NCBI GenBank assembly: GCA_937888805.1
Contig: CALBEY010000109.1
Location: 8,749-72,748, forward strand
Reading direction: 5' to 3'
DNA from: an uncultured Burkholderiaceae bacterium
GTDB lineage: Bacteria > Pseudomonadota > Gammaproteobacteria > Burkholderiales > Burkholderiaceae_B
Length of the DNA: 64,000 nucleotides
Part shown: in pieces, positions 2,308 to 15,818 of the stretch
How the letters are laid out: each line of letters opens with the position of its first letter
Position numbering within the stretch: position 1 is the first letter of the stretch
Notes under the pieces: generated by a model
Database searches by the model: none
What the model saw: only the letters and a program-made list of their open reading frames with translations
What the model was told of the DNA's origin: nothing
Made by a program: the position numbers and the translations under genes

Positions 2308-2898
2308 ATGTTTATGGGCAAGATCACGCGCGAAAGCCTCATGTCGTTAGAGGCTTACCACAAGGCCCGCCCAGAAATGCGTCAGAAAGCAATGGCCGAG
2401 CGTCGTTTGCGTTCGGTTCACTTGGGTGAGCACATCGTGCTCATTTTTGAGAACGAATTACTGATGCGCTATCAGATTCAAGAAATGTTGCGTGTTGAGA
2501 AGGTGTTTGAAGAAGAAGGCATCATGGAAGAGATCGAAGCCTACGATCCCTTGGTTCCTGACGGTTCGAATTTCAAAGCCACCATGCAAATTGAATACAT
2601 CAACGAAGCCGATCGCAAAATTGCGTTAGGCAAGTTGGTGGGTGTCGAGCACCGGATCTTTGTGCAAGTGGAGGGTCAGGCTCGCGTTTACGCCATCGCT
2701 GATGAAGATTTGGAGCGCTCAACCGATGTTAAAACCGCTGCGGTGCATTTTTTGCGGTTTGAGTTGAACGACGAAATGAAGAAGTCGCTGAAGAGCGGTG
2801 CGCAACTGATGGTTGGCTGTGACCACAAAGAGTACCCCATGCATGTTGATGCCTTGCCTGACGCTACGTTGGCCTCACTGGTCAGTGATCTCAGCTAA
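2308..2898 (+). CDS. DUF3501 family protein
   Basis: YQIQEMLRVE...YDPLVP...FKATMQIEY and AAVHFLRFEL; third gene of the rubrerythrin operon; AGGAGG RBS. Confidence 0.85.
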   Translation: MFMGKITRESLMSLEAYHKARPEMRQKAMAERRLRSVHLGEHIVLIFENELLMRYQIQEMLRVEKVFEEEGIMEEIEAYDPLVPDGSNFKATMQIEYINEADRKIALGKLVGVEHRIFVQVEGQARVYAIADEDLERSTDVKTAAVHFLRFELNDEMKKSLKSGAQLMVGCDHKEYPMHVDALPDATLASLVSDLS

Positions 2899-3847
2899 AT
2901 GCTTTCTGTGACAACCAAGCGGCGCCTCGAACGCCGCTTGAGTCACCGTGTTTGGCTCTCACAATCTTGGTTTGAACCGACGCACTGAACACAAATCGCT
3001 CGAGTTCTCGCGGCAGTTTTTCGTAAAGCCAAGGCATCTGACTTAACCCCCCACCCAACACAATACAGTCTGGATCCATCACGTTGATGACGGTGGCAAG
3101 CGCCGCGCCCAACTGCATCACGTAGATGGTCATGGCTTGCTGCGCTTGGGGTTCACCGCGCATGTACCGATTGGCAATGGTGTCAGCACTGGCTTGCTTG
3201 GGGCCGATATCGGTGTAGGTCTGACTCAAACCGGGGCCTGAAAGGTAGGTTTCTATGCAGTCGCGTTGACCACAATAACAGGCCCGACTTGGTAGCTGGA
3301 TTGTTCTCGCCATACTCGCGAAAGTGGGTAACGGATTGTGTCCCCATTCGCCGGCAATGTGTTGGCGACCCGTGTGCAAGTGCCAATTGATAAACCAACC
3401 GCCGCCGACCCCCGTGCCCAAAATCACACCAAATACGGTTCTGTCTTGGCTTGCCGCGCCATCGGTGGCTTCAGACAAGGTGAAACAGTTGGCGTCATTT
3501 TCTAAAAAAACAGGGATTTCAAGCAAGCGTTGTAAATCGATGGCCAGCGGTTGCCCAATCAGGCAGGTGGTATTGGCGTTTTTGAGCTGACCCGTTTCAG
3601 GTATTGGCGCGCCGGGTGCACCGATTCCAAGCGCCTGAGCGCGGATGCGTGTTTCGCCCTGAGCATGGCTGAGTAATTGGGCAATGTTGTGCAGGATTGC
3701 AAGGTAGTCGCTCGCTGGCGTCGGTAAGCGAGCGCGATGCAGAAACTGACCCTGAGGGTCAAGCACCGCGATTTCGGTTTTGGTGCCACCGAGATCAACC
3801 CCAAAAAGGCATTCTGAGGCATCCCCCCCCGTTTTATTAGGGCTCAT
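2891..3847 (-). CDS. ROK-family sugar kinase (fructokinase/Mak-like)
   Basis: GVDLGGTK, ENDANCF, GTGVGGG, AGEWGHNP, CYCGQRDCIE zinc motif, GDSSGVRGAAWL; start uncertain. Confidence 0.9.
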   Translation of the reverse strand: MSPNKTGGDASECLFGVDLGGTKTEIAVLDPQGQFLHRARLPTPASDYLAILHNIAQLLSHAQGETRIRAQALGIGAPGAPIPETGQLKNANTTCLIGQPLAIDLQRLLEIPVFLENDANCFTLSEATDGAASQDRTVFGVILGTGVGGGWFINWHLHTGRQHIAGEWGHNPLPTFASMARTIQLPSRACYCGQRDCIETYLSGPGLSQTYTDIGPKQASADTIANRYMRGEPQAQQAMTIYVMQLGAALATVINVMDPDCIVLGGGLSQMPWLYEKLPRELERFVFSASVQTKIVRAKHGDSSGVRGAAWLSQKAFS

Positions 3848-4604
3848 CGGGATGGGTCCGATGCCAGCGTGTTTCTAGCTCAAAACGGTCAGGACTATAA
3901 AAATTGTGTGATGCGCTCATGACGTTTTTTGCCTCGTCAAGGTAGATACGCGTCATTTTAAGGGTGGGTGCTTTGGCCGATACACCGAGTTCAAGGGCGG
4001 CCGCCGCGGGGATCGTGGCTGCCTCAATGCGTTGAATAACAGTATCAACAGGGATACCGAACAAATCAGCATGGAGGTTAAAAATGCTGACGTGATTGCC
4101 CTTTAATTTTTTCGCAATGTCAGCATAGGCGGGGCGCAGATAGACCTGGCTGTATGAGATGGGTTCCTTGCGCTGTAACTGGTGCCGATAGGCATGCAGC
4201 ATAAGCCAGCTTGACTGAGGTTCAACGCCTAGCGATTCGGCTTGAGCCTTTTTGAGGGTAATGTTTTCTGTATCGAACACGACCAAGCGGGTGTTGTGGG
4301 TGTAATCCATCAATTCTTTCATCGAGCCTAGGGCGGCAACGTAAGGCTTTTCGACGCTAGGCTCTTTGGCAGTGACGACTGTGCCGGAGCTGCGACGACG
4401 ACGAATGAGTCCATTCTCAACGAGCAGACGAGTCGCCTCCCTGACGGTGTGTCGGCTGACTTGATATTTGATGGCAATTTTCTCTTCCGTGGGGAAATGA
4501 CTGCCGACGGGGTACTTACCCTCGCGTATATCGGTGAGTAGGCAGTCATGTAGCCAAAGGTATCGTGGCCCCAGTGACTCATTTTGGTATTTTGCTAATG
4601 TCAT
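3837..4604 (-). CDS. GntR-family regulator, HutC/UTRA subfamily
   Basis: wHTH YPVGSHFPTEEKIAIKYQVSRHTVREA...RRSSGTVV followed by a UTRA-like domain; divergent from the catabolic operon. Confidence 0.9.
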   Translation of the reverse strand: MTLAKYQNESLGPRYLWLHDCLLTDIREGKYPVGSHFPTEEKIAIKYQVSRHTVREATRLLVENGLIRRRRSSGTVVTAKEPSVEKPYVAALGSMKELMDYTHNTRLVVFDTENITLKKAQAESLGVEPQSSWLMLHAYRHQLQRKEPISYSQVYLRPAYADIAKKLKGNHVSIFNLHADLFGIPVDTVIQRIEAATIPAAAALELGVSAKAPTLKMTRIYLDEAKNVMSASHNFYSPDRFELETRWHRTHPDEP

Positions 4605-4681
4605 TGCCTGAGTTTTAACGTGATGGGTTGTCTAAAGTTAATAATGGTTAGTACGGATAACAGTGAACTTGATGAAGTTAT

Positions 4682-4697
4682 CATTGTCCGTACAATG
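4682..4697. promoter_or_regulatory. Candidate GntR operator palindrome CATTGT-CCGT-ACAATG
   Basis: 6-bp perfect arms; related copies at 4647-4661 (opposite strand, TTATCCGTACTAA) and 4714-4725 (TTGTCCGCAAAT). Confidence 0.6.
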
Positions 4698-4762
4698 CGT
4701 TGCTGTCTCGCTTTTGTCCGCAAATTAATATCGCACCCCACTTTTAGGAAAATGAGCTGTTT

Positions 4763-5938
4763 ATGGATAATGCCAAAAGTCAGCAACCTGATCATACGTT
4801 AAGCGCGAGTCCGTTCGCAGGTCTAACGGTGATCGAGATCAGTAACAGTGTGGCAGCCCCGTTTGCTGGACAAATTTTCAGCGAGCTTGGCGCTCGTCTC
4901 ATCAAAGTAGAAAAGCCTGAAGGTGATGACGCGCGGGGGTGGGGGCCACCGTTCTGGGAAGGGGCATCAGCATATTTTCAAGCCCTAAACCGAAACAAAC
5001 TGTCGATCGTTTGCGACTTAAGGGATGCCGAGCAGATCGAGCGCCTTAAAGCATTGATTCTGTCAGAGGCCGATATCGTCATTCAGAATTTAAGACCAGG
5101 CCAAGTTGAAAAGCTTGGCATTGATGCCGACACGCTGTTGGCACTGAAACCCTCACTGATCTATTGCAACTTGGGTGCTTTTGGTCGGCAAGGGCCATTA
5201 AAAGACAAGCCAGGATACGATCCCTTGATGCAAGCCTTCAGTGGCATTATGAGTACGACAGGTGAGCCTGGTCGTCCCTCGGTGCGTGTTGGCGCCTCTC
5301 TTGTTGATATGGGTACAGGCATGTGGGCTGTGATTGGTAGCCTTGGTGCATTATTAGAACGTCAACACACTGGCAAGGGTCGAGTGGTCGATGTTTCATT
5401 ATTTGAAACGGCTTCTTGTTGGGTGTCCTTGATGGCATCGCAGTACTTGGCCAGCGGCGAATTGGCCTCACGTCAGGGCTCTGGTGCATCAGGTATCGTG
5501 CCGTATAAGGGCTATGTCACGAGCGATGGCGAAGTTGTTATCGCAGCCGGTAGTGACAAACTTTTTCGCAAATTGACAGTGGTTCTAAATCGCCCTGAAT
5601 GGGCAACAGACCCCAGGTTTGTTGATAACCCCAACCGTGTCAAACACCAAACCATTCTCTATGGTCTCATTGAGCCGCTGATCGCTCAGCAAAGCACCGA
5701 CTATTGGGTTGATGTTCTTGAAACACATGGAATTCCGTGCTCACCGGTCAACAATTTGGCGCAGATGCTAGCGCATCCCCAGACGGCGGCCATGGGTCTG
5801 GTGCAAGATGTGCCTGGCACAGCCATGAGATTTCTTGGATTACCGTTAAGTTTTGATGGGCAACGCCCCTCGCCTAGAAGCGCACCGCCCAAACTCGGCG
5901 AGCACAACAGTCTTTTAAAAGGAGTAATCAGTAAATGA
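4763..5938 (+). CDS. Family III (CaiB/BaiF) CoA-transferase
   Basis: FAGLTVIEI...AAPFAGQIFSELGARLIKVE, NRNKLSI, IQNLRPG, catalytic Asp in ASLVDMGTG, APPKLGEHN. Confidence 0.93.
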   Translation: MDNAKSQQPDHTLSASPFAGLTVIEISNSVAAPFAGQIFSELGARLIKVEKPEGDDARGWGPPFWEGASAYFQALNRNKLSIVCDLRDAEQIERLKALILSEADIVIQNLRPGQVEKLGIDADTLLALKPSLIYCNLGAFGRQGPLKDKPGYDPLMQAFSGIMSTTGEPGRPSVRVGASLVDMGTGMWAVIGSLGALLERQHTGKGRVVDVSLFETASCWVSLMASQYLASGELASRQGSGASGIVPYKGYVTSDGEVVIAAGSDKLFRKLTVVLNRPEWATDPRFVDNPNRVKHQTILYGLIEPLIAQQSTDYWVDVLETHGIPCSPVNNLAQMLAHPQTAAMGLVQDVPGTAMRFLGLPLSFDGQRPSPRSAPPKLGEHNSLLKGVISK

Positions 5939-6735
5939 ACGCCTTTCCCACCTACGAAACCGTGACCCTCAATCGGGTCGGTAACCATGTCTTGCAGGTG
6001 ACATTAAATCGTCCCCATGTCGGAAATGCGATCAACACACAAGTCGGTCATGATTTGTTGGATTTGTGGAACCGACTCACTGAGGACGCTGGCGACATTC
6101 GTTGCGTCGTATTAACGGGCGCTGGTGAGAAGATTTTTTGCGCGGGCGGTGACTTAAAAGAGCGCAATGGCATGACCAAGCGACAGTGGACCTTGCAACA
6201 CGAACTCTTTGAGCGGATGTTTTGGACACTGGTTGACCTACCGGTTCCCATTATTGCCGCTGTGAACGGTCATGCCTATGCGGGTGGCTTGGAGCTTGCT
6301 TTGTCGTGTGACTTTATATACGCCAGCCAGTCCGCCCGATTCGCTTTGACTGAAGCGACCTTGGGTATCATGCCCGGTGCTGGCGGCACACAAAACTTGC
6401 CGCGTGCCATTGGTGAGCGTCGTGCCAAAGAAATCATCATGACGGGTCGCCCTTTCGATGCAGAAAAAGCGTTGGGTTGGGGGCTGGTCAATGAAGTTTG
6501 CGAACCGTCCAATGTTTTGGTTCGAGCACTAGAGACAGCCGAAATCATTGCCGGCAATGCACCCTTGTCGGTGCGTCAAGTCAAAAAGTCCATTCGATAT
6601 GGTGGTCAGATGGAGCTACGCACGGCTTTGCGATTTGAAGTTGAGGCATATAACCATTTGATCGATACCGAAGATCGGATGGAGGGTGTGCTGGCCTTTA
6701 ACGAAAAGCGTAAGCCCAGCTTCAAGGGCAAATAG
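5935..6735 (+). CDS. Enoyl-CoA hydratase (crotonase family)
   Basis: FCAGGDLKE oxyanion motif; both catalytic Glu present (GGLEL and FALTEATLG). Confidence 0.92.
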   Translation: MNAFPTYETVTLNRVGNHVLQVTLNRPHVGNAINTQVGHDLLDLWNRLTEDAGDIRCVVLTGAGEKIFCAGGDLKERNGMTKRQWTLQHELFERMFWTLVDLPVPIIAAVNGHAYAGGLELALSCDFIYASQSARFALTEATLGIMPGAGGTQNLPRAIGERRAKEIIMTGRPFDAEKALGWGLVNEVCEPSNVLVRALETAEIIAGNAPLSVRQVKKSIRYGGQMELRTALRFEVEAYNHLIDTEDRMEGVLAFNEKRKPSFKGK

Positions 6736-6791
6736 AGCGGATTTTTCATAGAGAAAATCGGTATCGAACCATGTTAAGCAAGGAGTTTGCG

Positions 6792-7733
6792 GTGAAACAG
6801 AAAATTATTTTGCGCGAAGTGGGCCTACGAGACGGTTTGCAAATTCATCCCACCTTTATGCCGACTGACAGAAAGCTTGCTTGGATTGCTGCCGAAGCGG
6901 CTGCTGGCATCGGTGAAATTGAGGTGACTTCATATGTCCCTCCCAAGCTCATCCCACAGTTTGCCGACGCGGCTGAAGTGACCACCGAGTCGCTGCGCAT
7001 TCCCAATCTAATGGTGGCCGCGCTCATTCCCAATTTAAGGGGGGCACAGCGTGGCATTGAGTTGGGCGTGCAAAAGCTCAACTTTGTGATGTCAGTGAGC
7101 CACACGCACAATCTAAAAAACGTACGTCGCGAACCCGATGAGTCGGTGGCTGACTTCAAAAGCATCGTGGCACTAATTAAGGCGCAGCCTGAAGGCAAAC
7201 GACCCATCATCACGGGCGGTTTGTCCACAGCTTTGGGGTGCTCCTATGAGGGTCGTGTTGCGGTTTCAGCGGTGGTTAAGCGAGCTGTTCAGTTGGTTCA
7301 GGCCGGTGCAGATGAATTGGTGGTGGCAGATACCGTTGGCTATGCCGATCCTATCCAAGTTCGAGAGGTCTTCCAAGCGGTACTTAAAGAAGTTGGCGAC
7401 ACGCCCGTAGCGGCTCATTTCCACGACACTCGCGGCACCGGTTTGGCAAACGTCAGTGCGGCTTTGGATTGTGGCATCACACGCTTTGATGCGTCCTTGG
7501 CAGGCCTCGGTGGTTGTCCCTTTGCACCTGGCGCGAGTGGCAACATTGTGATGGAGGACCTTTGCTTTATGCTCGATTCAATGGGTTACAACACGGGCGT
7601 GGACCTCGGGCAGTTGGTGCAAGTGCGCGAGATCATCTCGCAAGCCCTACCAGATGTCAGCTTGCAAGGTGCGATTGCGCGTGCGGGATTGCCGCACAAC
7701 TATCAGACGGCAGCCCAACGGCGTGCCGCCTAG
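6792..7733 (+). CDS. HMG-CoA-lyase-family (HMGL-like) acyl-CoA lyase
   Basis: REVGLRDGLQ, HFHDTRG metal site, GLGGCPFAPGASGN; GTG start at 6792 after AGGAG (the ORF track starts at 6771). Confidence 0.9.
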   Translation: MKQKIILREVGLRDGLQIHPTFMPTDRKLAWIAAEAAAGIGEIEVTSYVPPKLIPQFADAAEVTTESLRIPNLMVAALIPNLRGAQRGIELGVQKLNFVMSVSHTHNLKNVRREPDESVADFKSIVALIKAQPEGKRPIITGGLSTALGCSYEGRVAVSAVVKRAVQLVQAGADELVVADTVGYADPIQVREVFQAVLKEVGDTPVAAHFHDTRGTGLANVSAALDCGITRFDASLAGLGGCPFAPGASGNIVMEDLCFMLDSMGYNTGVDLGQLVQVREIISQALPDVSLQGAIARAGLPHNYQTAAQRRAA

Positions 7734-7760
7734 GGCAGCGTTGAGTTAATTAAAGAGACA

Positions 7761-8945
7761 ATGATGACCACTATCAATCATTTGAGTATCGCCTGCGGTG
7801 AGGACTTTGCTGACATTCGGGAGAGCGTGCGCCGAGTTTGTGCTGACTTTCCCGGCCGCTATTGGCGCGACCTTGAAGAAACAGAGGCGTACCCCACCGA
7901 GTTCGTCAAAGCGCTCACGGATGCTGGCTTCTTGGGTGCCTTGATTCCCGAGGCCTATGGCGGCAGTGGGATGCCTTTGCGGGCAGCGATGGTGATATTG
8001 GAAGAGATTCACGCTTCAGGCTGTAACGCGGGTGCATGCCATGCTCAGATGTACACCATGGGCACGGTGCTGCGCCACGGCAGTGACGCCCAAAAAGAAA
8101 AGTACCTGCCTGAGATTGCCGCTGGTCGTTTGCGGCTCCAGGCGTTTGGTGTGACTGAGCCCACTTCAGGGACTGACACCACCAAACTCAAAACACGAGC
8201 GGTGCGCGATGGTGATGAGTATGTGATCAATGGTCAGAAAGTGTGGACCTCGCGTGCGCTGCATTCTGATTTGATGCTGCTCTTGGCTCGCACCACGCCA
8301 CTAGACGAGGTCAAGAAAAAAAGTGAGGGATTGTCGGTTTTTTTGATCGATATTCGCCAAGCGCGCAACAAAGGGCTTGAGATTAAGCCCATCAAGGCGA
8401 TGGTCAATCACAACACGACAGAGGTGTTTTTTGACAATTTGCGCATTCCGGCTGACAGTTTGATCGGTGAAGAGGGTAAGGGATTTCGTTACATCCTCGA
8501 TGGCATGAACGCCGAACGTATTTTGGTGTCAGCAGAGGCCATTGGAGATGCCCGATGGTTTACACAAAAGTCAGTCGCGTATGTGTCTGAGCGACGTGTT
8601 TTTGACCGGCCGATTGGACAAAACCAAGCCGTACAATTTCCAGTGGCACGGGCTTATGCCGAAGCGCAGGCGGCAGACCTCGTCTTGAGACGGGCAGCGG
8701 CACTGTTTGACCAGGGGCTACCGTGCGGTGATGACGCCAACATGGGTAAGTTGTTGGCCTCTGATGCGGCCTGGCATGCGGCTGAGGCGTGCTTGCAAAA
8801 TCACGGTGGCTTTGGCTATGCGCGTGAGTACGATGTCGAACGCAAATGGCGCGAGACCCGTCTGTTTCAAATTGCACCCATTTCCACCAATCTTGTGTTG
8901 TCTTACATCGGTGAGCACATATTGGGTATGCCACGCTCGTTTTGA
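7761..8945 (+). CDS. Acyl-CoA dehydrogenase
   Basis: GVTEPTSGTD, INGQKVWTS, NAERIL, HGGFGYAREYDVERKWRETRLFQIAPISTNL, C-terminal MPRSF. Confidence 0.93.
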   Translation: MMTTINHLSIACGEDFADIRESVRRVCADFPGRYWRDLEETEAYPTEFVKALTDAGFLGALIPEAYGGSGMPLRAAMVILEEIHASGCNAGACHAQMYTMGTVLRHGSDAQKEKYLPEIAAGRLRLQAFGVTEPTSGTDTTKLKTRAVRDGDEYVINGQKVWTSRALHSDLMLLLARTTPLDEVKKKSEGLSVFLIDIRQARNKGLEIKPIKAMVNHNTTEVFFDNLRIPADSLIGEEGKGFRYILDGMNAERILVSAEAIGDARWFTQKSVAYVSERRVFDRPIGQNQAVQFPVARAYAEAQAADLVLRRAAALFDQGLPCGDDANMGKLLASDAAWHAAEACLQNHGGFGYAREYDVERKWRETRLFQIAPISTNLVLSYIGEHILGMPRSF

Positions 8946-8964
8946 GCCAATAACGGAAAAGATT

Positions 8965-10344
8965 ATGACCACGACGAATCACTTAACAAAATCGCTGGCC
9001 CAATACGTTGCCAAGCCGACTTTTGGTTCAGCGCAAGCGCAAGCAATGGCTATTGCTAATCTTGGATTTATCGACACGATTGGCACCATGATGGCGGGTT
9101 CAAAGGAGCCTGTTGTTCAGTTGCTGATGGCGCATTATGAGCAATATCAAACGCCGCAAGAGGCACCCTTGGGCTTTGCCAATGTGTTCAAGCCGGCACC
9201 GATTGCTGCGTGCATTAACGCCACGGCTGGGCATGCCTTGGACTACGATGACGTCGCCATGTCAGGACACCCAAGCACCGTTTTGGTACCGGCGATTTTG
9301 GCAGAAGGGCATTACTTGAATGCGAGCGGTGAGCAGGCGCTGCAAGCCTACGTGGTGGGTTACGAGGTCTGGTCTGAGTTGGTTTATCGTGAGCCTGGTA
9401 AATACCACCTGAAAGGTTGGCACCCCACAGGTGTGTTGGGTACGGTCGCCGTCGCCGCGGCCGTGTCGGTTTTGCATCAGCTCAATGAAGAGCAGGCGTC
9501 CAATGCCTTGGCAATCGCCGCGAGCATGGCGAGCGGGCTGGTTGCCAATTTTGGCAGTATGACCAAACCCTTGCATGCGGGTCGAGCGGCCGCAAACGGG
9601 ATTGAAGCGGTCCGATTGGCCAAGATCGGTATTACCGCATCACCGGACGCCTTTGAACACCCGGCTGGCTATTTGAACGCGTTATCAGTCAAACAAGATG
9701 CCGATCGCCTATCAGCTGCTGACCGATTGGGTCAACAACCCCGTATTTTAGAAACAGGCCTGTCGATCAAACGTTACCCCATCTGTTATTCATGTCATCG
9801 CGCCGTTGACGGCATGCTTGACTTGGTCGCCGCACACAATCTCACACCATCGGATATTGATCACATTACGTGCACGATAGGCCCAGCGCAGGCCTCGATG
9901 TTGCGTAACCACCGACCGCAGACCGGACTAGAAGCGAAGTTTAGTATCGAGTTTGCCATGGCCAGTGCGGTGCTTAAGCGTGATGTTGGCTTGCGGCAGC
10001 TGACCGATGAGTTTGTGCTTCAGCCAGATGTTCAAGCGTTGTTTGAAAAGGTTAGCGTGCAAATCAATGAAGAACCTTGCCCGCTTGAGCCGTCCTCAGC
10101 TTTGACAGACCGTGTGGTGGTGACCTTAATGGATGGCCGCTCTTTGGATTCTGGTCCGATTCGATTCCCACTCGGTAACGCCGGTAAACCGTTAGACGAA
10201 GCCGGCATGCGCGCTAAGTTCATCGACTGTCTCGAATCTGCAAAAGCCCTGGGTGTCGACATGCCGTTTACGGCACAAACGTTATACAGCCGAGTGTCGC
10301 GATTGGAATCCATTCGTAGTCTGAAATCGATTTTTGAGCGTTAA
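8965..10344 (+). CDS. MmgE/PrpD family protein
   Basis: NATAGHALDYDD, GHPS, GWHPT, TKPLHAG, KRYPIC; ATG at 8965 is the likely start (the ORF-track extension to 8707 overlaps the ACAD gene). Confidence 0.9.
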   Translation: MTTTNHLTKSLAQYVAKPTFGSAQAQAMAIANLGFIDTIGTMMAGSKEPVVQLLMAHYEQYQTPQEAPLGFANVFKPAPIAACINATAGHALDYDDVAMSGHPSTVLVPAILAEGHYLNASGEQALQAYVVGYEVWSELVYREPGKYHLKGWHPTGVLGTVAVAAAVSVLHQLNEEQASNALAIAASMASGLVANFGSMTKPLHAGRAAANGIEAVRLAKIGITASPDAFEHPAGYLNALSVKQDADRLSAADRLGQQPRILETGLSIKRYPICYSCHRAVDGMLDLVAAHNLTPSDIDHITCTIGPAQASMLRNHRPQTGLEAKFSIEFAMASAVLKRDVGLRQLTDEFVLQPDVQALFEKVSVQINEEPCPLEPSSALTDRVVVTLMDGRSLDSGPIRFPLGNAGKPLDEAGMRAKFIDCLESAKALGVDMPFTAQTLYSRVSRLESIRSLKSIFER

Positions 10345-10394
10345 ACACGTGGCGACTTAATTGCAACGCTATTTTTTAATCAAAGAGGCCTATC

Positions 10395-11954
10395 ATCGAT
10401 AAGCCAGTCACTATTGATTGGTCTGCTGGCTTACACACGCTGGCAGACCGTTTTGAGAGCGCCATCGCGGTATCCGATGGTGATGGGTGTTACCTGACTT
10501 ACCGCGAATTGTGTGATCGAGCGCACCAATTGGCGATGATGTTGTCTACCCAAGTTGATGCGCAAGCCGGCTTGCCCATTGCCACGCTTTTGCCCAACAG
10601 TGTGGGCGCTGTGGTCGCCTCCTATGCGGTTCGCATAACAGGTGCTGGTGAAGTGCCGATCAGTTGGTACAGCACTGAAGAAGAAATTGATTGGTGCGCC
10701 AAATTGGCAAAGGTCTCGCATGTGTTGACGCTAAAGGCGCGTCAGGCAGTACTCGGTGGGTTGGGTCTTAATACCGTCTGTCTGGATGCCATCGCCACGA
10801 CCGCAGCGGTTCCCCCAATAAAAAAAGGGGTGTTTGCAGGGGTTCAGGCAACGCTGGTTGGCCGAATTCTCTTTACCTCTGGTACGACGGGCAAGCCCAA
10901 GGGCGTCTTATATCGGCACATGGATCGGTGGTTAGGAGAGCAGATGCTCAAGGCATCTTTGCCCTTTGTTCCAAGGGTTGGTGACAAAATCCTTTTAATG
11001 ACCCCTTTTGTGCACGGCTCTTCGTTGTTGGCATACGCTTGGTGTGATCTTGGCGGACATGCTGTTTTGCTCGATGGGGTCGTCATTGAAAAAATCCGCG
11101 AGCAGCTACAAGATCCTCGGTTGAGAGCCATCTTTGCACCACCGACTGTTTTAGCCAAAATCACAAGTGCTTTTGAAGGGCAGTCTTTTAAGCAGGTGGA
11201 ATGTATCTTTACAGGCACGCAACCATTGACAGCGCTGCTATACGCACGGGCTTGTGCGATGTTTGGTCCGGTCGTCCGAGTCACTTATGGTAAGTCAGAG
11301 TGTGTCAATCCCATCACGGTATTGTCAATGGCAGATACACATGACTATTTTTCGGCGCCGAACATACCCGCAGGTGCTTGCGTGGGTCACCCGGCCCCGG
11401 GCGTTGAGCTGCGGATTGAAGTGGGTCTTCAAGATAATAGCGACGAGAGTGACGGCAGTGATGGCGAGGTTTGGCTCAGGGCGCCACACATGTCCTGCGG
11501 CATGATCACGCCCGATGGCTTTGCTAGCCATGAACCTGATGGCTGGCATCAAACAGGTGACTTGGGCCATATCGATGCGGCGGGCCGCTTGGTGTTAACC
11601 GGACGAATGGCCGATGTCATCAAAACAGGTGGTTTTAAGGTCAACCCAGACGAAATTGAGGCATTGCTGTCAACACTCGGTGCTTCAACGCAGGTGTGCG
11701 TGACTGCTGTGCCGTCAGACTATTGGGGTGAAATCATTGTGGCAGTGGCTGAGTTGGCCTTTGAAGGCTGGGAGTCGGTGGCTCAAGAACGGGTGAAACC
11801 ACTGTCTCGTCACAAACACCCAAGACTCTTTCTAGCTGTTGAGGCATTGCCTAGAAATCCTCAGGGTAAAGTCAGTCGTCGTGCGGTCAGAGAGCTGATT
11901 TTGAGAGCGTATGAATTGATTGATGGCCCCTACCCCAAAATGATACGACGCTAA
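10395..11954 (+). CDS. Class I adenylate-forming enzyme (acyl-CoA ligase); start codon anomalous
   Basis: FTSGTTGKPKG, YGKSE, TGDLG, GRMADVIKTGG, LPRNPQGK. The frame is open from 10380 and encodes LTYREL upstream of the first canonical start (TTG 10509). The 10395 start (ATC) is inferred. Confidence 0.8.
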   Translation: MDKPVTIDWSAGLHTLADRFESAIAVSDGDGCYLTYRELCDRAHQLAMMLSTQVDAQAGLPIATLLPNSVGAVVASYAVRITGAGEVPISWYSTEEEIDWCAKLAKVSHVLTLKARQAVLGGLGLNTVCLDAIATTAAVPPIKKGVFAGVQATLVGRILFTSGTTGKPKGVLYRHMDRWLGEQMLKASLPFVPRVGDKILLMTPFVHGSSLLAYAWCDLGGHAVLLDGVVIEKIREQLQDPRLRAIFAPPTVLAKITSAFEGQSFKQVECIFTGTQPLTALLYARACAMFGPVVRVTYGKSECVNPITVLSMADTHDYFSAPNIPAGACVGHPAPGVELRIEVGLQDNSDESDGSDGEVWLRAPHMSCGMITPDGFASHEPDGWHQTGDLGHIDAAGRLVLTGRMADVIKTGGFKVNPDEIEALLSTLGASTQVCVTAVPSDYWGEIIVAVAELAFEGWESVAQERVKPLSRHKHPRLFLAVEALPRNPQGKVSRRAVRELILRAYELIDGPYPKMIRR

Positions 11955-13105
11955 TACGCCGCTTCAAACAGAGCCACGAAAGCGGCATGATCTGTTGGCC
12001 TTGGATTCCATGGGGTGTAGTTCGCTGTGACGCAATCAGCGGCCATGGCCTCGAAGTCCTGTGGTTTGGCGCCGACGTGGTGCAGCCCACTAGGGATACC
12101 AACGTCCCGACACAAGGCCGCAATGGCTTGGACGGCCCGTTGCGCCATGGTTTGCTCGTCTTCTTGCTGACTTAAAACACCCATCGCTTGAGCGATTTGA
12201 GCGTATTTCGAGGGTTCAGCGACACGGTTGAAGTCTGCGACTGCTGTCAAACACAATGCATTTGAGAGGCCATGTGAAACATGATACTTGGCGCCGACAA
12301 AGCGAGCCATACAGTGCACATTGCCCAGGCCGGTTTGACCAAATGACATCCCTGCCATGGCCGAACCTAGCAACATGTTCAGTGCAGCTTGTTGGTTACT
12401 TCGGTCTTTGACAAAGGCTCGTAAATCATGACTGATGAGGGCGATAGCCTTTAGGTTTAAAGCGTCGGTGATGGGGGTGGCTTTCAAAGAAGTGAATGAT
12501 TCGAGCGCGTGTACAAAAGCGTCTAGCCCAGCGTGCGCTGCTACCGAGGCGGGCAAAGTGACCAGTGCATCGGGGTCTAGCAGTGCGAAGCGCGCCGGAT
12601 TGAGCTGGGCATGTCGAATCGACATCTTGCGATTGGTGTCGCTATCCGTGATGACGCAAGATCCTGAAACCTCAGAACCGGTGCCCGCCGTTGTTGGGAT
12701 GGCAATAAGTGGTAATCCAGGTTGGTTGAATTTCTCGGAACCCTCGAAATCGTGAATTTTTCCGCCGTGCACCATTAGGATGGCCACGGCTTTGGCGACG
12801 TCCATGGCGCTGCCGCCACCGATTGCAAGCACACTATCTGCTTGATGTTGTTGTGCTTGTTCAAAGGCTTTTTGAACGGTGTTCGAACTTGGGTCTGATT
12901 CGATTTCACTAAATAAGACGGTATTGGTGGGGCTGTTATCAAGGCTCGCTTTGACAGATTGATAAAACGGGGTGCTCAATAGCGCTGAATCAACCACCAG
13001 AAAAAGCTTCTTGGTGTCAAGCGTGCTTAGAAGGGCTGGCAGTTGTTGACTGACACCCGATCCGAAATGGATGGTTGTTGGGCATAAAAATTTGGATGTG
13101 AGCAT
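11951..13105 (-). CDS. Iron-containing (type III) alcohol dehydrogenase
   Basis: GGGSAMDVAK, PTTAGTGSE, DAFVHALES, GNVHCMA, HGLSN metal ligands. Confidence 0.93.
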   Translation of the reverse strand: MLTSKFLCPTTIHFGSGVSQQLPALLSTLDTKKLFLVVDSALLSTPFYQSVKASLDNSPTNTVLFSEIESDPSSNTVQKAFEQAQQHQADSVLAIGGGSAMDVAKAVAILMVHGGKIHDFEGSEKFNQPGLPLIAIPTTAGTGSEVSGSCVITDSDTNRKMSIRHAQLNPARFALLDPDALVTLPASVAAHAGLDAFVHALESFTSLKATPITDALNLKAIALISHDLRAFVKDRSNQQAALNMLLGSAMAGMSFGQTGLGNVHCMARFVGAKYHVSHGLSNALCLTAVADFNRVAEPSKYAQIAQAMGVLSQQEDEQTMAQRAVQAIAALCRDVGIPSGLHHVGAKPQDFEAMAADCVTANYTPWNPRPTDHAAFVALFEAAY

Positions 13106-14434: not shown

Positions 14435-14622
14435 CGTTGTACTCGGTGTCGTCATCAGTTGAAGGCCCACTTGCCCCAAACAAATAGGACATTGCCGTCG
14501 TTGTATTTTTGACTCGGGATATAGGCCGCTAAAATTTAGGTTAAAACAGCACCTCATCTGGGCTGACAAGACCCTGCCATTGTGGCTAAATATGATTTTA
14601 TTTCCAATGTCCATTGCTTCTC

Positions 14623-15228
14623 ATGAATCCACCACAGGATCGCGTTAAGTCAAACGCCGATCGCGCCAAGCCCGAATCGTTACGAGAGTTATTTGTTTTT
14701 TTTAGTTTGTTGGCGCTGCAAGGCTTCGGTGGCATTGTGGCGTTCATTGAACGGGGGTTGGTCGTTCAAAAAAAATGGATGACCCGCGAAGAGTTTCTTG
14801 AAGACTGGGCGGTGGCTCGAACCATGCCTGGCCCCCCCGCCATCAACATGAGTATCGTGATTGGTGCCCGGCATTTTGGGGTGATTGGTTCGATTGTCTC
14901 TGTGGCTGGTATGTTTTTGGTGCCAACGGGCGTGGTGTTGATACTGGCGGTGCTCTACGCCCAGTTTAATGACCAACCGCAGGTGGTCGATGCACTGAGA
15001 GGCATGGGATCGGTGGCCGCCGGTCTCATTATTGCCACCGGTCTGCGTCTGTTAACGGCACTGCGATCCAATGTGATGGGTGTCACCGTCTGCGCGATAT
15101 TGGCGCTGGCCAGTTTTGTGCTGGTCGCGCTCTTGGAGTGGCGCGTGATGTACGTGCTGTTACTGCTCGGGATCACGGCTTGTGGTTATGCCTATTGGTG
15201 CATTCAAACCCGAGAGCGGAGCGCTTGA
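14623..15228 (+). CDS. Short-chain chromate transporter (CHR family), subunit 1
   Basis: QGFGG...KKWMTREEF...MPGP motif; hydrophobic; ATG 14623 (TTG 14614 alternative). Confidence 0.85.
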   Translation: MNPPQDRVKSNADRAKPESLRELFVFFSLLALQGFGGIVAFIERGLVVQKKWMTREEFLEDWAVARTMPGPPAINMSIVIGARHFGVIGSIVSVAGMFLVPTGVVLILAVLYAQFNDQPQVVDALRGMGSVAAGLIIATGLRLLTALRSNVMGVTVCAILALASFVLVALLEWRVMYVLLLLGITACGYAYWCIQTRERSA

Positions 15229-15818
15229 TGGGGACACTTTCGATTGCCATGTCGTGGGACGATTGGCTCACCCTGATTCAAAACTTTCTTTTGCTTTCTG
15301 CTGTTGCCATGGGTGGGCCCTTGGTCTTGTTACCTGAAATGCGCCACCTGTTGGTTGATACGCATGGTTGGCTGACTGACGATCAAATGAGTGCCTCAGT
15401 GGTGATTGCCCAAGCCGCACCAGGGCCCAATGTTTTGTTTGTGGCGCTTTTGGGTTGGAATGTGGGTTTGAACAACGGCAGCTATGGTTGGGCTTTTTTT
15501 GGGGCGGCCGCTCTCATGATTGCGATGTTGTTGCCCTCATCACTGATGGTATTTTCTACTGCGCGTTGGATTCATAAAAACGGCCACAAACCAGGCGTGC
15601 GCGCCTTCAAGCAAGGTATGAGCCCAATCGTGGTGGCTTTGCTGATTGCCTCAGGTTGGACGCTTGCCAACACGGGAACCTCGTCGCTTGGCGATTGGCC
15701 CTTTTGGTTAGTGACAGCAGTAACCGTTGGCTTGGTGCTTTGGGGCAAGATCCATATGTTTTGGTTGTTGGCCATTGGCGCATTCTTGGGGGCCACAGGG
15801 CTGTTATCGGTGGCGTAA
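15228..15818 (+). CDS. Short-chain chromate transporter (CHR family), subunit 2
   Basis: AMGGP...WLTDDQM...IAQAAPGPN motif; TGATG coupling with subunit 1. Confidence 0.85.
   Translation: MGTLSIAMSWDDWLTLIQNFLLLSAVAMGGPLVLLPEMRHLLVDTHGWLTDDQMSASVVIAQAAPGPNVLFVALLGWNVGLNNGSYGWAFFGAAALMIAMLLPSSLMVFSTARWIHKNGHKPGVRAFKQGMSPIVVALLIASGWTLANTGTSSLGDWPFWLVTAVTVGLVLWGKIHMFWLLAIGAFLGATGLLSVA

Follow-up and report, generated by a model that had tools for sequence, protein, structure and literature searches.

Oxidation of small branched dicarboxylates as coenzyme A (CoA) esters is known from the itaconate cluster of Pseudomonas (PA0878-PA0883) and Cupriavidus necator, which encodes Ich, Mcd, Msi, Ict and Ccl. 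Gonner et al. 2025 described its acyl-CoA dehydrogenase (ACAD) as a dehydrogenase of (RS)-methylsuccinyl-C4-CoA, Mcd, and its MmgE/PrpD protein Msi as an (S)-(R)-methylsuccinate isomerase that acts on the free acid via a His102/Tyr148 two-base site (PMC12290011). The Msi gene is always adjacent to Mcd, and all characterised MmgE/PrpD enzymes use 1,4-dicarboxylates (PMC12290011). We analyzed a 64-kb stretch of DNA, hereafter called the window, which lies on contig C109 of a near-complete metagenome-assembled genome (MAG; 2.6 Mb, 141 contigs) whose closest public relatives are labelled Burkholderiaceae/Orrella MAGs. At window positions 3837-13105 it holds six tightly packed, co-oriented genes, i.e., for a family III CoA-transferase, a crotonase, a lyase of the 3-hydroxy-3-methylglutaryl-CoA (HMG-CoA) lyase family (HMGL), an ACAD, an MmgE/PrpD protein (here PrpD2) and an acyl-CoA ligase. 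A HutC-type GntR gene is divergent from these six, and a convergent gene for an iron-type alcohol dehydrogenase (Fe-ADH) follows them.

Like the Pseudomonas/Cupriavidus cluster, the window operon would oxidize a branched dicarboxylate in a CoA-dependent manner. Both have an Mcd-family ACAD, an MmgE/PrpD gene immediately beside it and a family III transferase, and both would proceed by hydration and then retro-Claisen cleavage to acetyl-CoA and a 2-oxoacid. The initial annotation of the window had missed this tie of the ACAD, MmgE/PrpD and transferase core to the 2025 cluster (PMC12290011). The two systems differ in their parts. The hydratase is a crotonase in the window and the MaoC-type Ich in Pseudomonas/Cupriavidus, the lyase is of the HMGL (DRE-TIM) type instead of the CitE/HpcH type of the (S)-citramalyl-CoA lyase Ccl, and PrpD2 belongs to a subfamily distinct from Msi. 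Moreover, the window has an additional acyl-CoA ligase and a GntR regulator, whereas the regulator of the known cluster is of the LysR type. The P. aeruginosa cluster used for comparison was recovered from L105 (NZ_CP131792.1). This 847-kb record is labelled as a plasmid of P. aeruginosa and carries the chromosomal PA0878-PA0886 itaconate cluster together with acs; it may represent a piece of chromosome, or else an integrative element of very large size, that was deposited as a plasmid.

We propose a HutC/GntR-linked operon that would break down a small branched dicarboxylate in a CoA-dependent manner. The substrate would most likely be one of three C5 acids, namely methylsuccinate, mesaconate or itaconate; we consider the chances of this proposal to be about even. 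The operon is best read as the crotonase/HMGL counterpart of the MaoC/CitE-based itaconate-methylsuccinate cluster of Pseudomonas/Cupriavidus. Our verdict is that the branched-C5-dicarboxylate CoA pathway is represented here by a variant that is real, conserved and as yet uncharacterised, and that this is not a new kind of pathway. The following genes make up the locus.

3837-4604, minus strand: GntR/UTRA (HutC-type) regulator (Pfam GntR 4.9e-15, UTRA 1.6e-13)
4763-5938, plus strand: family III (CoA_transf_3, CaiB/BaiF) CoA-transferase (PF02515 1e-114)
5935-6735, plus strand: crotonase (ECH_1) enoyl-CoA hydratase (PF00378 3.7e-70)
6771-7733, plus strand: HMGL-like (DRE-TIM) acyl-CoA lyase (PF00682 2.5e-41; NF004283 289 bits)
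7761-8945, plus strand: Mcd-family ACAD, methylsuccinyl-C4-CoA dehydrogenase-like (65% identity to PA0879 Mcd)
8965-10344, plus strand: MmgE/PrpD enzyme PrpD2, of the branch of iminodisuccinate (IDS) epimerase and cis-aconitate decarboxylase (CAD) (PF03972 2.3e-51, PF19305 2.8e-29)
10380-11954, plus strand (frame open from 10380): ANL-family acyl-CoA ligase (PF00501, PF13193)
11951-13105, minus strand: Fe-ADH, convergent neighbour (PF00465, PF25137)

All eight open reading frames (ORFs) are intact, each family call was borne out by Pfam and NCBIfam, and catalytic motifs are readable in the translations of all six operon enzymes. The layout described in the initial annotation was confirmed throughout, i.e., the six tightly spaced genes, the divergent regulator, and the convergent Fe-ADH with its 3' end overlapping that of the ligase by 4 nt. 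The sequences also support its view of a GntR-linked, CoA-dependent catabolic operon in which an ACAD, a crotonase hydratase and an HMGL-type retro-Claisen lyase would act in turn. Spacings among the co-oriented genes are -4, 35, 27 and 19 nt. For PrpD2 we replaced the TTG 8707 start of the mechanical ORF list by ATG 8965, because a start at the former would create a 239-nt overlap with the ACAD gene, and alignments with relatives begin at residue 1 of the latter. For the ligase, conservation of the frame extends beyond the listed TTG 10509 in the upstream direction, and the conserved N-terminus begins at or before 10419. TTG 10509 is the first ATG/GTG/TTG codon, and starting there removes about 35 conserved residues. 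Upstream of it, we found an AAGAGG ribosome-binding site at 10383-10388 and, before the conserved WSAGL motif, only ATC (10392, 10395), ATT (10413) and CTG as candidate starts. The orthologues in loci L019 and L020 begin with an ATG upstream.

The ACAD provides the strongest argument for the substrate. It is closely related to PA0879, the characterised dehydrogenase of (RS)-methylsuccinyl-C4-CoA, and in a maximum-likelihood tree the ACADs encoded beside window-type PrpD genes form a clade (99% support in the SH-like approximate likelihood-ratio test, SH-aLRT) that is sister to the canonical Mcds. In a comparison of ACADs from crotonase/HMGL/PrpD2 contexts (25 sequences) and from MaoC/CitE/Msi contexts (22 sequences), a single alignment column discriminated the groups (W363 versus F), and mean identity was 0.65 between groups compared with 0.69 and 0.72 within them. 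Given this one column and a between-group identity close to that within groups, we read the ACADs of both cluster types as one essentially isofunctional family that was recruited into each of them. The oxidized acyl-CoA would hence be methylsuccinyl-C4-CoA or close to it. Among the substrates named in the initial annotation, a methylsuccinate-like acid is thus best supported, whereas 3-methylglutarate or HMG are less favoured than a C5 substituted succinate. No close characterised structure was found for the ACAD in the PDB. 'Mcd2' of C. necator, considered as a possible window-type cluster, was rejected as a canonical Mcd paralogue.

PrpD2 shares 29% identity with PA0881 Msi. In a tree of 104 sequences, the window-type PrpD subfamily (88 sequences, 99% support) stands cleanly apart from the Msi clade (100%). 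The phylogenies with characterised members, run for two enzymes, placed the ACAD next to its described counterpart and PrpD2 outside the Msi clade. The best PDB match of PrpD2 is IDS epimerase 2hp0 (1e-60); its other solved relatives are the B. subtilis 'IRG1' homologue and cis-aconitate decarboxylases (1e-30 to 1e-48) and not PrpD dehydratases. Scores against the PrpD equivalogs stayed far below the cut-offs for a 2-methylcitrate dehydratase (TIGR02330, 24.8 versus 458 bits; NF006943, 40 versus 575). A PrpD-type dehydratase, one of the options in the initial annotation, accordingly had to be given up in favor of a member of the IDS-epimerase/CAD branch.

With this branch PrpD2 has the HALDxDD/GHPS motifs in common, and it keeps all six family residues His/Asp/His/His/Lys/Lys, including the catalytic His, as well as the MmgE/PrpD N- and C-terminal domains. 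These six residues bind the 1,4-dicarboxylate in the MmgE/PrpD family (PMC12290011). The second catalytic base is absent, i.e., Tyr148 of Msi and Tyr145 of IDS epimerase are without equivalent. Tyr145 aligns to a gap, as a one-residue deletion puts a subfamily-conserved His at the neighbouring position (motif H-x-[KRH]-G-[WF]-H-P-T), and the position of Msi Tyr148 is Leu or variable. The genomic context also differs, with CoA-ester catabolism for PrpD2 and aminopolycarboxylate degradation or itaconate synthesis for IDS epimerase and CAD. An assignment of PrpD2 as Msi was rejected in view of the low identity, the separate clade, the missing Tyr148 equivalent and a true Msi orthologue on another contig of the genome (C39, see below). 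Because the epimerase Tyr is missing and PrpD2 is linked to crotonase or HMGL genes without an ACAD at many loci (see below), its reaction is probably not just methylsuccinate racemization. The enzyme would act via an enolate on a free 1,4-dicarboxylate, and an attractive possibility is that it isomerizes the double bond of itaconate or citraconate to yield mesaconate.

The crotonase has both catalytic Glu residues, 20 residues apart (GGLE...LTE), as had been stated in the initial annotation. Its best PDB match is the YngF-type 3kqf, with the AUH methylglutaconyl-CoA hydratase 1hzd at 1e-44, and crotonases encoded beside window-type PrpD genes are 52-91% identical across Proteobacteria. The lyase passes the NCBIfam cut-off of the HMG-CoA-lyase subfamily (NF004283, 289 versus 246 bits) and matches the HMG-CoA lyases 6nds, 1ydo and 2cw6 at 1e-45 to 1e-68. 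Its translation contains the motifs LRDGLQ, HFHDT, GLGGCPF and SGN with the catalytic R-D, H-x-H, C and N, which we take to be the equivalents of R41/D42, H233/H235, C266 and N275 in human HMG-CoA lyase. The same hydratase and lyase families occur in the same order in the lower leucine pathway (AUH/LiuC/YngF and HMGCL/LiuE/YngG). Unlike this pathway, the window has no methylcrotonyl-CoA carboxylase and no isovaleryl-CoA dehydrogenase, its ACAD is of the Mcd type, and it has PrpD, transferase and ligase genes. The missing carboxylase and isovaleryl-CoA dehydrogenase speak against an HMG-CoA lyase in a leucine or ketogenesis context.

In the CoA-transferase, the GYD motif of family III is present. 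Its best NCBIfam matches are succinate-glutarate (top), oxalate and mesaconate CoA-transferases, all below cut-off. It belongs to the same family (PF02515) as P. aeruginosa Ict, but is only 34% identical to it, and shares 67-84% identity with its counterparts in orthologous clusters. The ligase shows the motifs TSGTTGKPKG and, C-terminally, GKV, and orthologues of 53-94% identity occupy the same cluster position. A ligase next to a transferase is also found in the cai operon of E. coli, which combines a family III transferase, a crotonase, an ACAD and a ligase as the window does and can serve as a model for this coexistence, i.e., priming and CoA cycling. The cai operon has no lyase and no PrpD, and the window has neither a betaine transporter nor CaiE. 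Only in L018-L020, which belong to the same genus, does an Fe-ADH gene adjoin the cluster; all other cluster versions lack it. The enzyme reaches the cut-off of no NCBIfam equivalog that it matches (best, lactaldehyde reductase, 308 versus 523 bits). We hence did not count it as part of the pathway, and entry from an alcohol or lactone, as had been suggested, was dropped.

To describe the linkage of these genes, we gathered 80 genome loci with window-type PrpD and 80 metagenome loci with Mcd-family ACAD, plus annotated plasmid examples. Neighbourhoods were evaluated by tblastn with window and P. aeruginosa proteins, since a simple ORF caller yields spurious antisense ORFs in high-GC loci. The full window order, i.e., GntR and transferase-crotonase-HMGL-ACAD-PrpD-(binding protein)-ligase, was found in three MAGs of the genus and in freshwater contigs L113-L117. 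The order is permuted in Acuticoccus; the cluster of Comamonas (L071) has no HMGL gene, and neither have the permuted clusters of the marine Gammaproteobacteria L069/L072. Plasmid pPT365 of Paraburkholderia terrae reads IclR, crotonase-transferase-ACAD-PrpD-ETFβ-ETFα-HMGL-MFS-ETF:QO, where ETF stands for electron-transfer flavoprotein, MFS for major facilitator superfamily and ETF:QO for ETF-quinone oxidoreductase. Co-conservation, which the initial annotation had named as a check, hence extends beyond chance.

PrpD2 is flanked by 7 kb or more on either side at 42 loci, where we counted its neighbours: crotonase (identity at least 50%) at 23, HMGL-family lyase at 23, family III transferase at 22, ligase at 13, Mcd-like ACAD at 9, MaoC at 1 and CitE at 0. 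Crotonase or HMGL without an Mcd-like ACAD was found in 24 of the 42. Msi-clade genes, on the other hand, are accompanied by MaoC, a CitE-like lyase, Ict and Mcd. Among 301 genomes sampled evenly from the order Burkholderiales, 12 (about 4%) had a PrpD2 (E ≤ 1e-90). In the window (10344-10420) and its two nearest relatives, the PrpD and ligase genes are separated by no more than a short spacer. At this place L020 and L021 carry genes for a tripartite ATP-independent periplasmic (TRAP) transporter, DctPQM (L020 11534-14456), and L117 a Bug/TctC binding protein (9177-10163). These transport genes inside the clusters of relatives indicate a carboxylate substrate. PDB relatives of the L020 TRAP binding protein (1e-20) are too distant to name its ligand, and the protein is unrelated to the TRAP protein PA0884. 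A literature search returned no paper on a crotonase/HMGL/PrpD cluster type and no usable data on fitness or on the substrate-contact residues of HMG-CoA lyases, and in the literature searched the exact combination is not a characterised pathway, as had been noted from the sequence before. The Prokaryotic Genome Annotation Pipeline (PGAP) gives generic names to the cluster members.

PrpD2 was also found in smaller or differently composed clusters. In MAGs from Acetobacteraceae and soil (L051, L056, L063, L065, L075 and L082), an FAH-family gene is followed by ligase-crotonase-HMGL(34% identity)-PrpD2 with no ACAD; this resembles a sister module, with an unsaturated or hydroxy acid as the putative substrate. 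Advenella (L023-L033) has a minimal version composed of Bug, GntR and crotonase-PrpD2-distant family III transferase; neither ACAD nor HMGL genes lie close by. Its crotonase is 78% identical to that of the window and far better conserved than its PrpD (about 50%). In L069/L072, the PrpD-transferase-crotonase-ACAD block is flanked on both sides by ORFs of about 276-279 aa, which read by eye are alpha/beta-hydrolase-like. The block in L072 is followed by an apparent short-chain dehydrogenase/reductase and by ORFs of 699 and 109 aa whose N-termini, also by eye, resemble hydantoinase/oxoprolinase A and B subunits. These flanking ORFs suggest lineage-specific feeder enzymes.

The genome is rich in paralogues of the operon enzymes. 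Matches with >60% coverage amount to 7 MmgE/PrpD proteins, 24 family III transferases, 21 crotonases and 11 ACADs in 2.6 Mb. There are also three HMGL-family lyases (on C109, C67 and C70), each of which adjoins a family III transferase, and no liu-type carboxylase or cluster was found near any of them. True orthologues of Mcd (79% to PA0879) and Msi (60% to PA0881) are encoded on contig C39 (1801-5899) in a stand-alone unit without Ict, Ich and Ccl, where a divergent LysR gene precedes Mcd-Msi-RidA-like. On contig C20, two further ACAD genes precede orthologues of Ich (55%) and Ict (70%); the genome has no other Ich orthologue. As the true Mcd-Msi and Ich-Ict orthologues lie on other contigs, the window cluster is a paralogous system and not the known cluster itself. 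The best CitE-like match in the genome is a 297-aa gene on C17 (about 39% identity in fragments) with a transferase adjacent. In view of this pair, we rejected as a firm claim that the genome has no Ccl at all and that the window cluster supplies the lyase. A third ACAD-PrpD module is located on C13 (3180-8321) with the order MaoC(185 aa)-PrpD-ACAD-family III transferase-GntR. Its uncharacterised proteins are each only about 30-36% identical to both the window and the Pseudomonas proteins. Among 18 genomes of the genus, all have the Msi orthologue and 9 have PrpD2, and the window-type HMGL occurs in exactly the same 9.

Taken as a pathway for a C5 dicarboxylate, the operon would work as follows. 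The family III CoA-transferase would load CoA onto the C4 carboxyl of the free dicarboxylate, and the ligase may prime the CoA pool or take an isomer that the transferase refuses, by analogy to CaiC and CaiB. The Mcd-family ACAD would oxidize methylsuccinyl-C4-CoA to mesaconyl-C4-CoA, and the crotonase would hydrate this product to citramalyl-CoA. We predict the (R)-isomer, i.e., the spatial equivalent of (S)-HMG-CoA. The HMGL-family lyase would cleave this 3-hydroxy-3-substituted acyl-CoA to acetyl-CoA and a 2-oxoacid, which would be pyruvate if the substituent is methyl. PrpD2 would act on the free acid via an enolate and, by isomerization at a stereocentre or a double bond, supply the isomer suited to activation. 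The (R)-citramalyl-CoA lyase of Chloroflexus is an HMGL-family enzyme. The CitE-type Rv2498c cleaves (S)-citramalyl-CoA and (R)-HMG-CoA (PMC6689899). From this pairing and the same switch in Cahn-Ingold-Prelog priority, an HMGL-type (S)-HMG-CoA lyase should match (R)-citramalyl-CoA. The route hence probably runs through the citramalyl-CoA stereoisomer opposite to that of the known route.

A number of observations weigh against the C5 proposal. The genome already has the canonical Mcd-Msi and Ich-Ict genes on C39 and C20, and the cluster is an add-on in half of the genus genomes, all of which have Msi; an add-on beside the canonical set hints at a distinct substrate and not at a second methylsuccinate route. 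PrpD2 is only distantly related to Msi and has no second-base Tyr, and the many PrpD2 loci without an Mcd-like ACAD indicate a reaction other than simple methylsuccinate epimerization. The window cluster contains no transporter gene. Finally, a lyase above the HMG-CoA-lyase threshold and a crotonase similar to methylglutaconyl-CoA hydratase would fit a C6 substrate equally well.

Such a C6 route would start from 3-methylglutarate, or from 3-methylglutaconate or HMG, activated by the ligase or by a transferase akin to succinate-glutarate CoA-transferase (SUGCT). The ACAD would form 3-methylglutaconyl-CoA, the AUH/YngF-like crotonase (S)-HMG-CoA, and HMG-CoA lyase acetoacetate and acetyl-CoA. 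The lyase, with HMG-CoA lyases as its best PDB matches, the crotonase with its YngF-type and AUH matches and the transferase with succinate-glutarate CoA-transferase as its top family all agree with this route, and so does the lack of a liu-type cluster around the other two HMGL paralogues of the genome. However, the ACAD is a member of the methylsuccinyl-C4-CoA dehydrogenase family and lacks pocket changes specific to its clade, and the cluster encodes no enzyme to activate acetoacetate. Moreover, PrpD would be left without a role, given that its family uses 1,4-dicarboxylates (PMC12290011) and 3-methylglutarate is an achiral 1,5-diacid. We consider a C6 substrate unlikely.

The hint at a distinct substrate could also be accommodated by the same enzyme logic acting on another 2-substituted succinate or a tricarboxylate, which we hold to be rather improbable. 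Ethyl- or isopropylsuccinate would then yield the respective 2-oxoacid, or tricarballylate/aconitate would pass via aconityl-CoA and citryl-CoA to oxaloacetate and acetyl-CoA, with PrpD2 isomerizing or decarboxylating the free polycarboxylate. Coexistence with a complete canonical Mcd-Msi set suggests a non-redundant substrate. The closest solved relative of PrpD2, IDS epimerase, acts on a compound with a bulky substituent at C2, and the FAH-family gene that heads many ligase-crotonase-HMGL-PrpD clusters belongs to the oxaloacetate decarboxylase/acylpyruvase family. HMGL-family Claisen enzymes, among them isopropylmalate synthase, homocitrate synthase and citramalate synthase, handle many 2-oxoacids, which also fits. 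Against this stands that the ACAD has no conserved differences from Mcd, that nothing positive points to any particular alternative substrate, and that the known tricarballylate and aconitate routes are CoA-independent.

A cai-like CoA shuttle appears highly improbable. In it, the ligase would prime the CoA pool, the transferase would cycle CoA, and crotonase and ACAD would interconvert hydroxy, enoyl and saturated forms for respiration or detoxification instead of carbon catabolism, with the lyase as an incidental neighbour. At the family level, transferase, crotonase, ACAD and ligase do mirror CaiB, CaiD, CaiA and CaiC, but equivalog scores are far below cut-off and do not identify a cai operon (CaiB 75.5 versus 413, CaiD 180 versus 500, CaiA 139 versus 540 bits), the lyase is co-conserved with the cluster, and the ETF and ETF-QO genes coupled to the cluster in P. 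terrae point to oxidation. That unrelated paralogues came together by chance is hardly credible, for although adjacency is not rare in a genome so rich in these families, combinations of the same specific subfamilies are found again in Alpha-, Beta- and Gammaproteobacteria, association with cluster type agrees between the ACAD and PrpD trees, gene spacing is only -4 to 35 nt, and PrpD and HMGL co-occur perfectly within the genus.

The regulator has a GntR winged helix-turn-helix domain (PF00392) and a UTRA domain (PF07702), i.e., the architecture of the HutC subfamily; it scored below cut-off against the NCBIfam equivalogs HutC, PhnF and others. GntR orthologues (40-80% identity) are divergent from the same cluster type in L018-L020, L071, L113, L117 and Advenella. 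As they accompany the cluster also in lineages without the ROK kinase gene found beside the regulator here, we assign the regulator to the cluster. This ROK-family sugar kinase gene (window 2891-3847; fructokinase/NagK-like, below equivalog cut-offs) overlaps the GntR 3' end by 11 nt on the same strand and may be co-transcribed with it; the pairing is kept within the genus only. Between the GntR and CoA-transferase genes lie two short elements.

4685-4694, no strand assigned: operator-like perfect palindrome TGTCCGTACA (consensus TGTMCGKACA), conserved position across orthologous loci
4669-4696, plus strand: sigma-70-like promoter candidate TTGATG-16-TACAAT (consensus scan, pattern match only)

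One or two copies of TGTMCGKACA are present in this intergenic region in all 7 orthologous loci examined. The copy at 4685-4694 is the sole exact match within the window and overlaps the -10 element of the promoter-like site facing the operon. With one mismatch allowed, the palindrome is not enriched over the window as a whole, and its support comes from position and cross-species conservation. We expect that GntR represses the operon and is released by the substrate or its CoA ester.

GC content is even across the region, and the flanks are ordinary chromosome. Upstream are genes for rubrerythrin, a CCG-domain protein, DUF3501 and the ROK kinase, downstream a PQQ-type glucose/sorbosone dehydrogenase (GSDH family), split chromate-transporter genes and gatB/gatA. 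The chromate-transporter genes are two overlapping half-size ChrA-family ORFs (204 and 226 aa; 14614-15818), which corresponds to a two-gene short-ChrA arrangement and not to one fused gene. A Megablast search with this region returned nothing from E. coli genomes or plasmids.

As metabolites, itaconate, mesaconate and methylsuccinate have antimicrobial and immunomodulatory effects, and they serve as building blocks for polymers, too. If the window operon acts on them, a second route for methylsuccinate-type acids would use non-homologous parts, i.e., a crotonase for MaoC, an HMG-CoA-lyase-type for a CitE-type enzyme and another MmgE/PrpD subfamily. The bacterial methylsuccinate route was completed only in 2025 (PMC12290011). 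Going further, we tentatively suggest, while considering it more doubtful than the C5 proposal as such, that crotonase, HMGL lyase and PrpD2 form a third, convergent and so far unrecognised solution for C5 dicarboxylates after the Yersinia and Pseudomonas types, which would run via (R)-citramalyl-CoA and include a new MmgE/PrpD activity. This activity could be that of a free-acid isomerase of a one-base or His/His type, with itaconate (or citraconate) as substrate and mesaconate as product. Such an isomerase would replace the isomerase half-reaction that the MaoC-type Ich performs on the CoA ester, and it would account for the linkage of PrpD2 to crotonase and lyase also at loci where the ACAD is missing. 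Should the substrate be another substituted succinate or a tricarboxylate, the operon would represent a new catabolic substrate class. A second methylsuccinate route would supply a stereo-complementary enzyme set for pathway engineering and would correct the routine annotations 'HMG-CoA lyase' and 'enoyl-CoA hydratase' in such clusters. It would also give a function to a large uncharacterised MmgE/PrpD subfamily that is found in many Alphaproteobacteria and Gammaproteobacteria as well.

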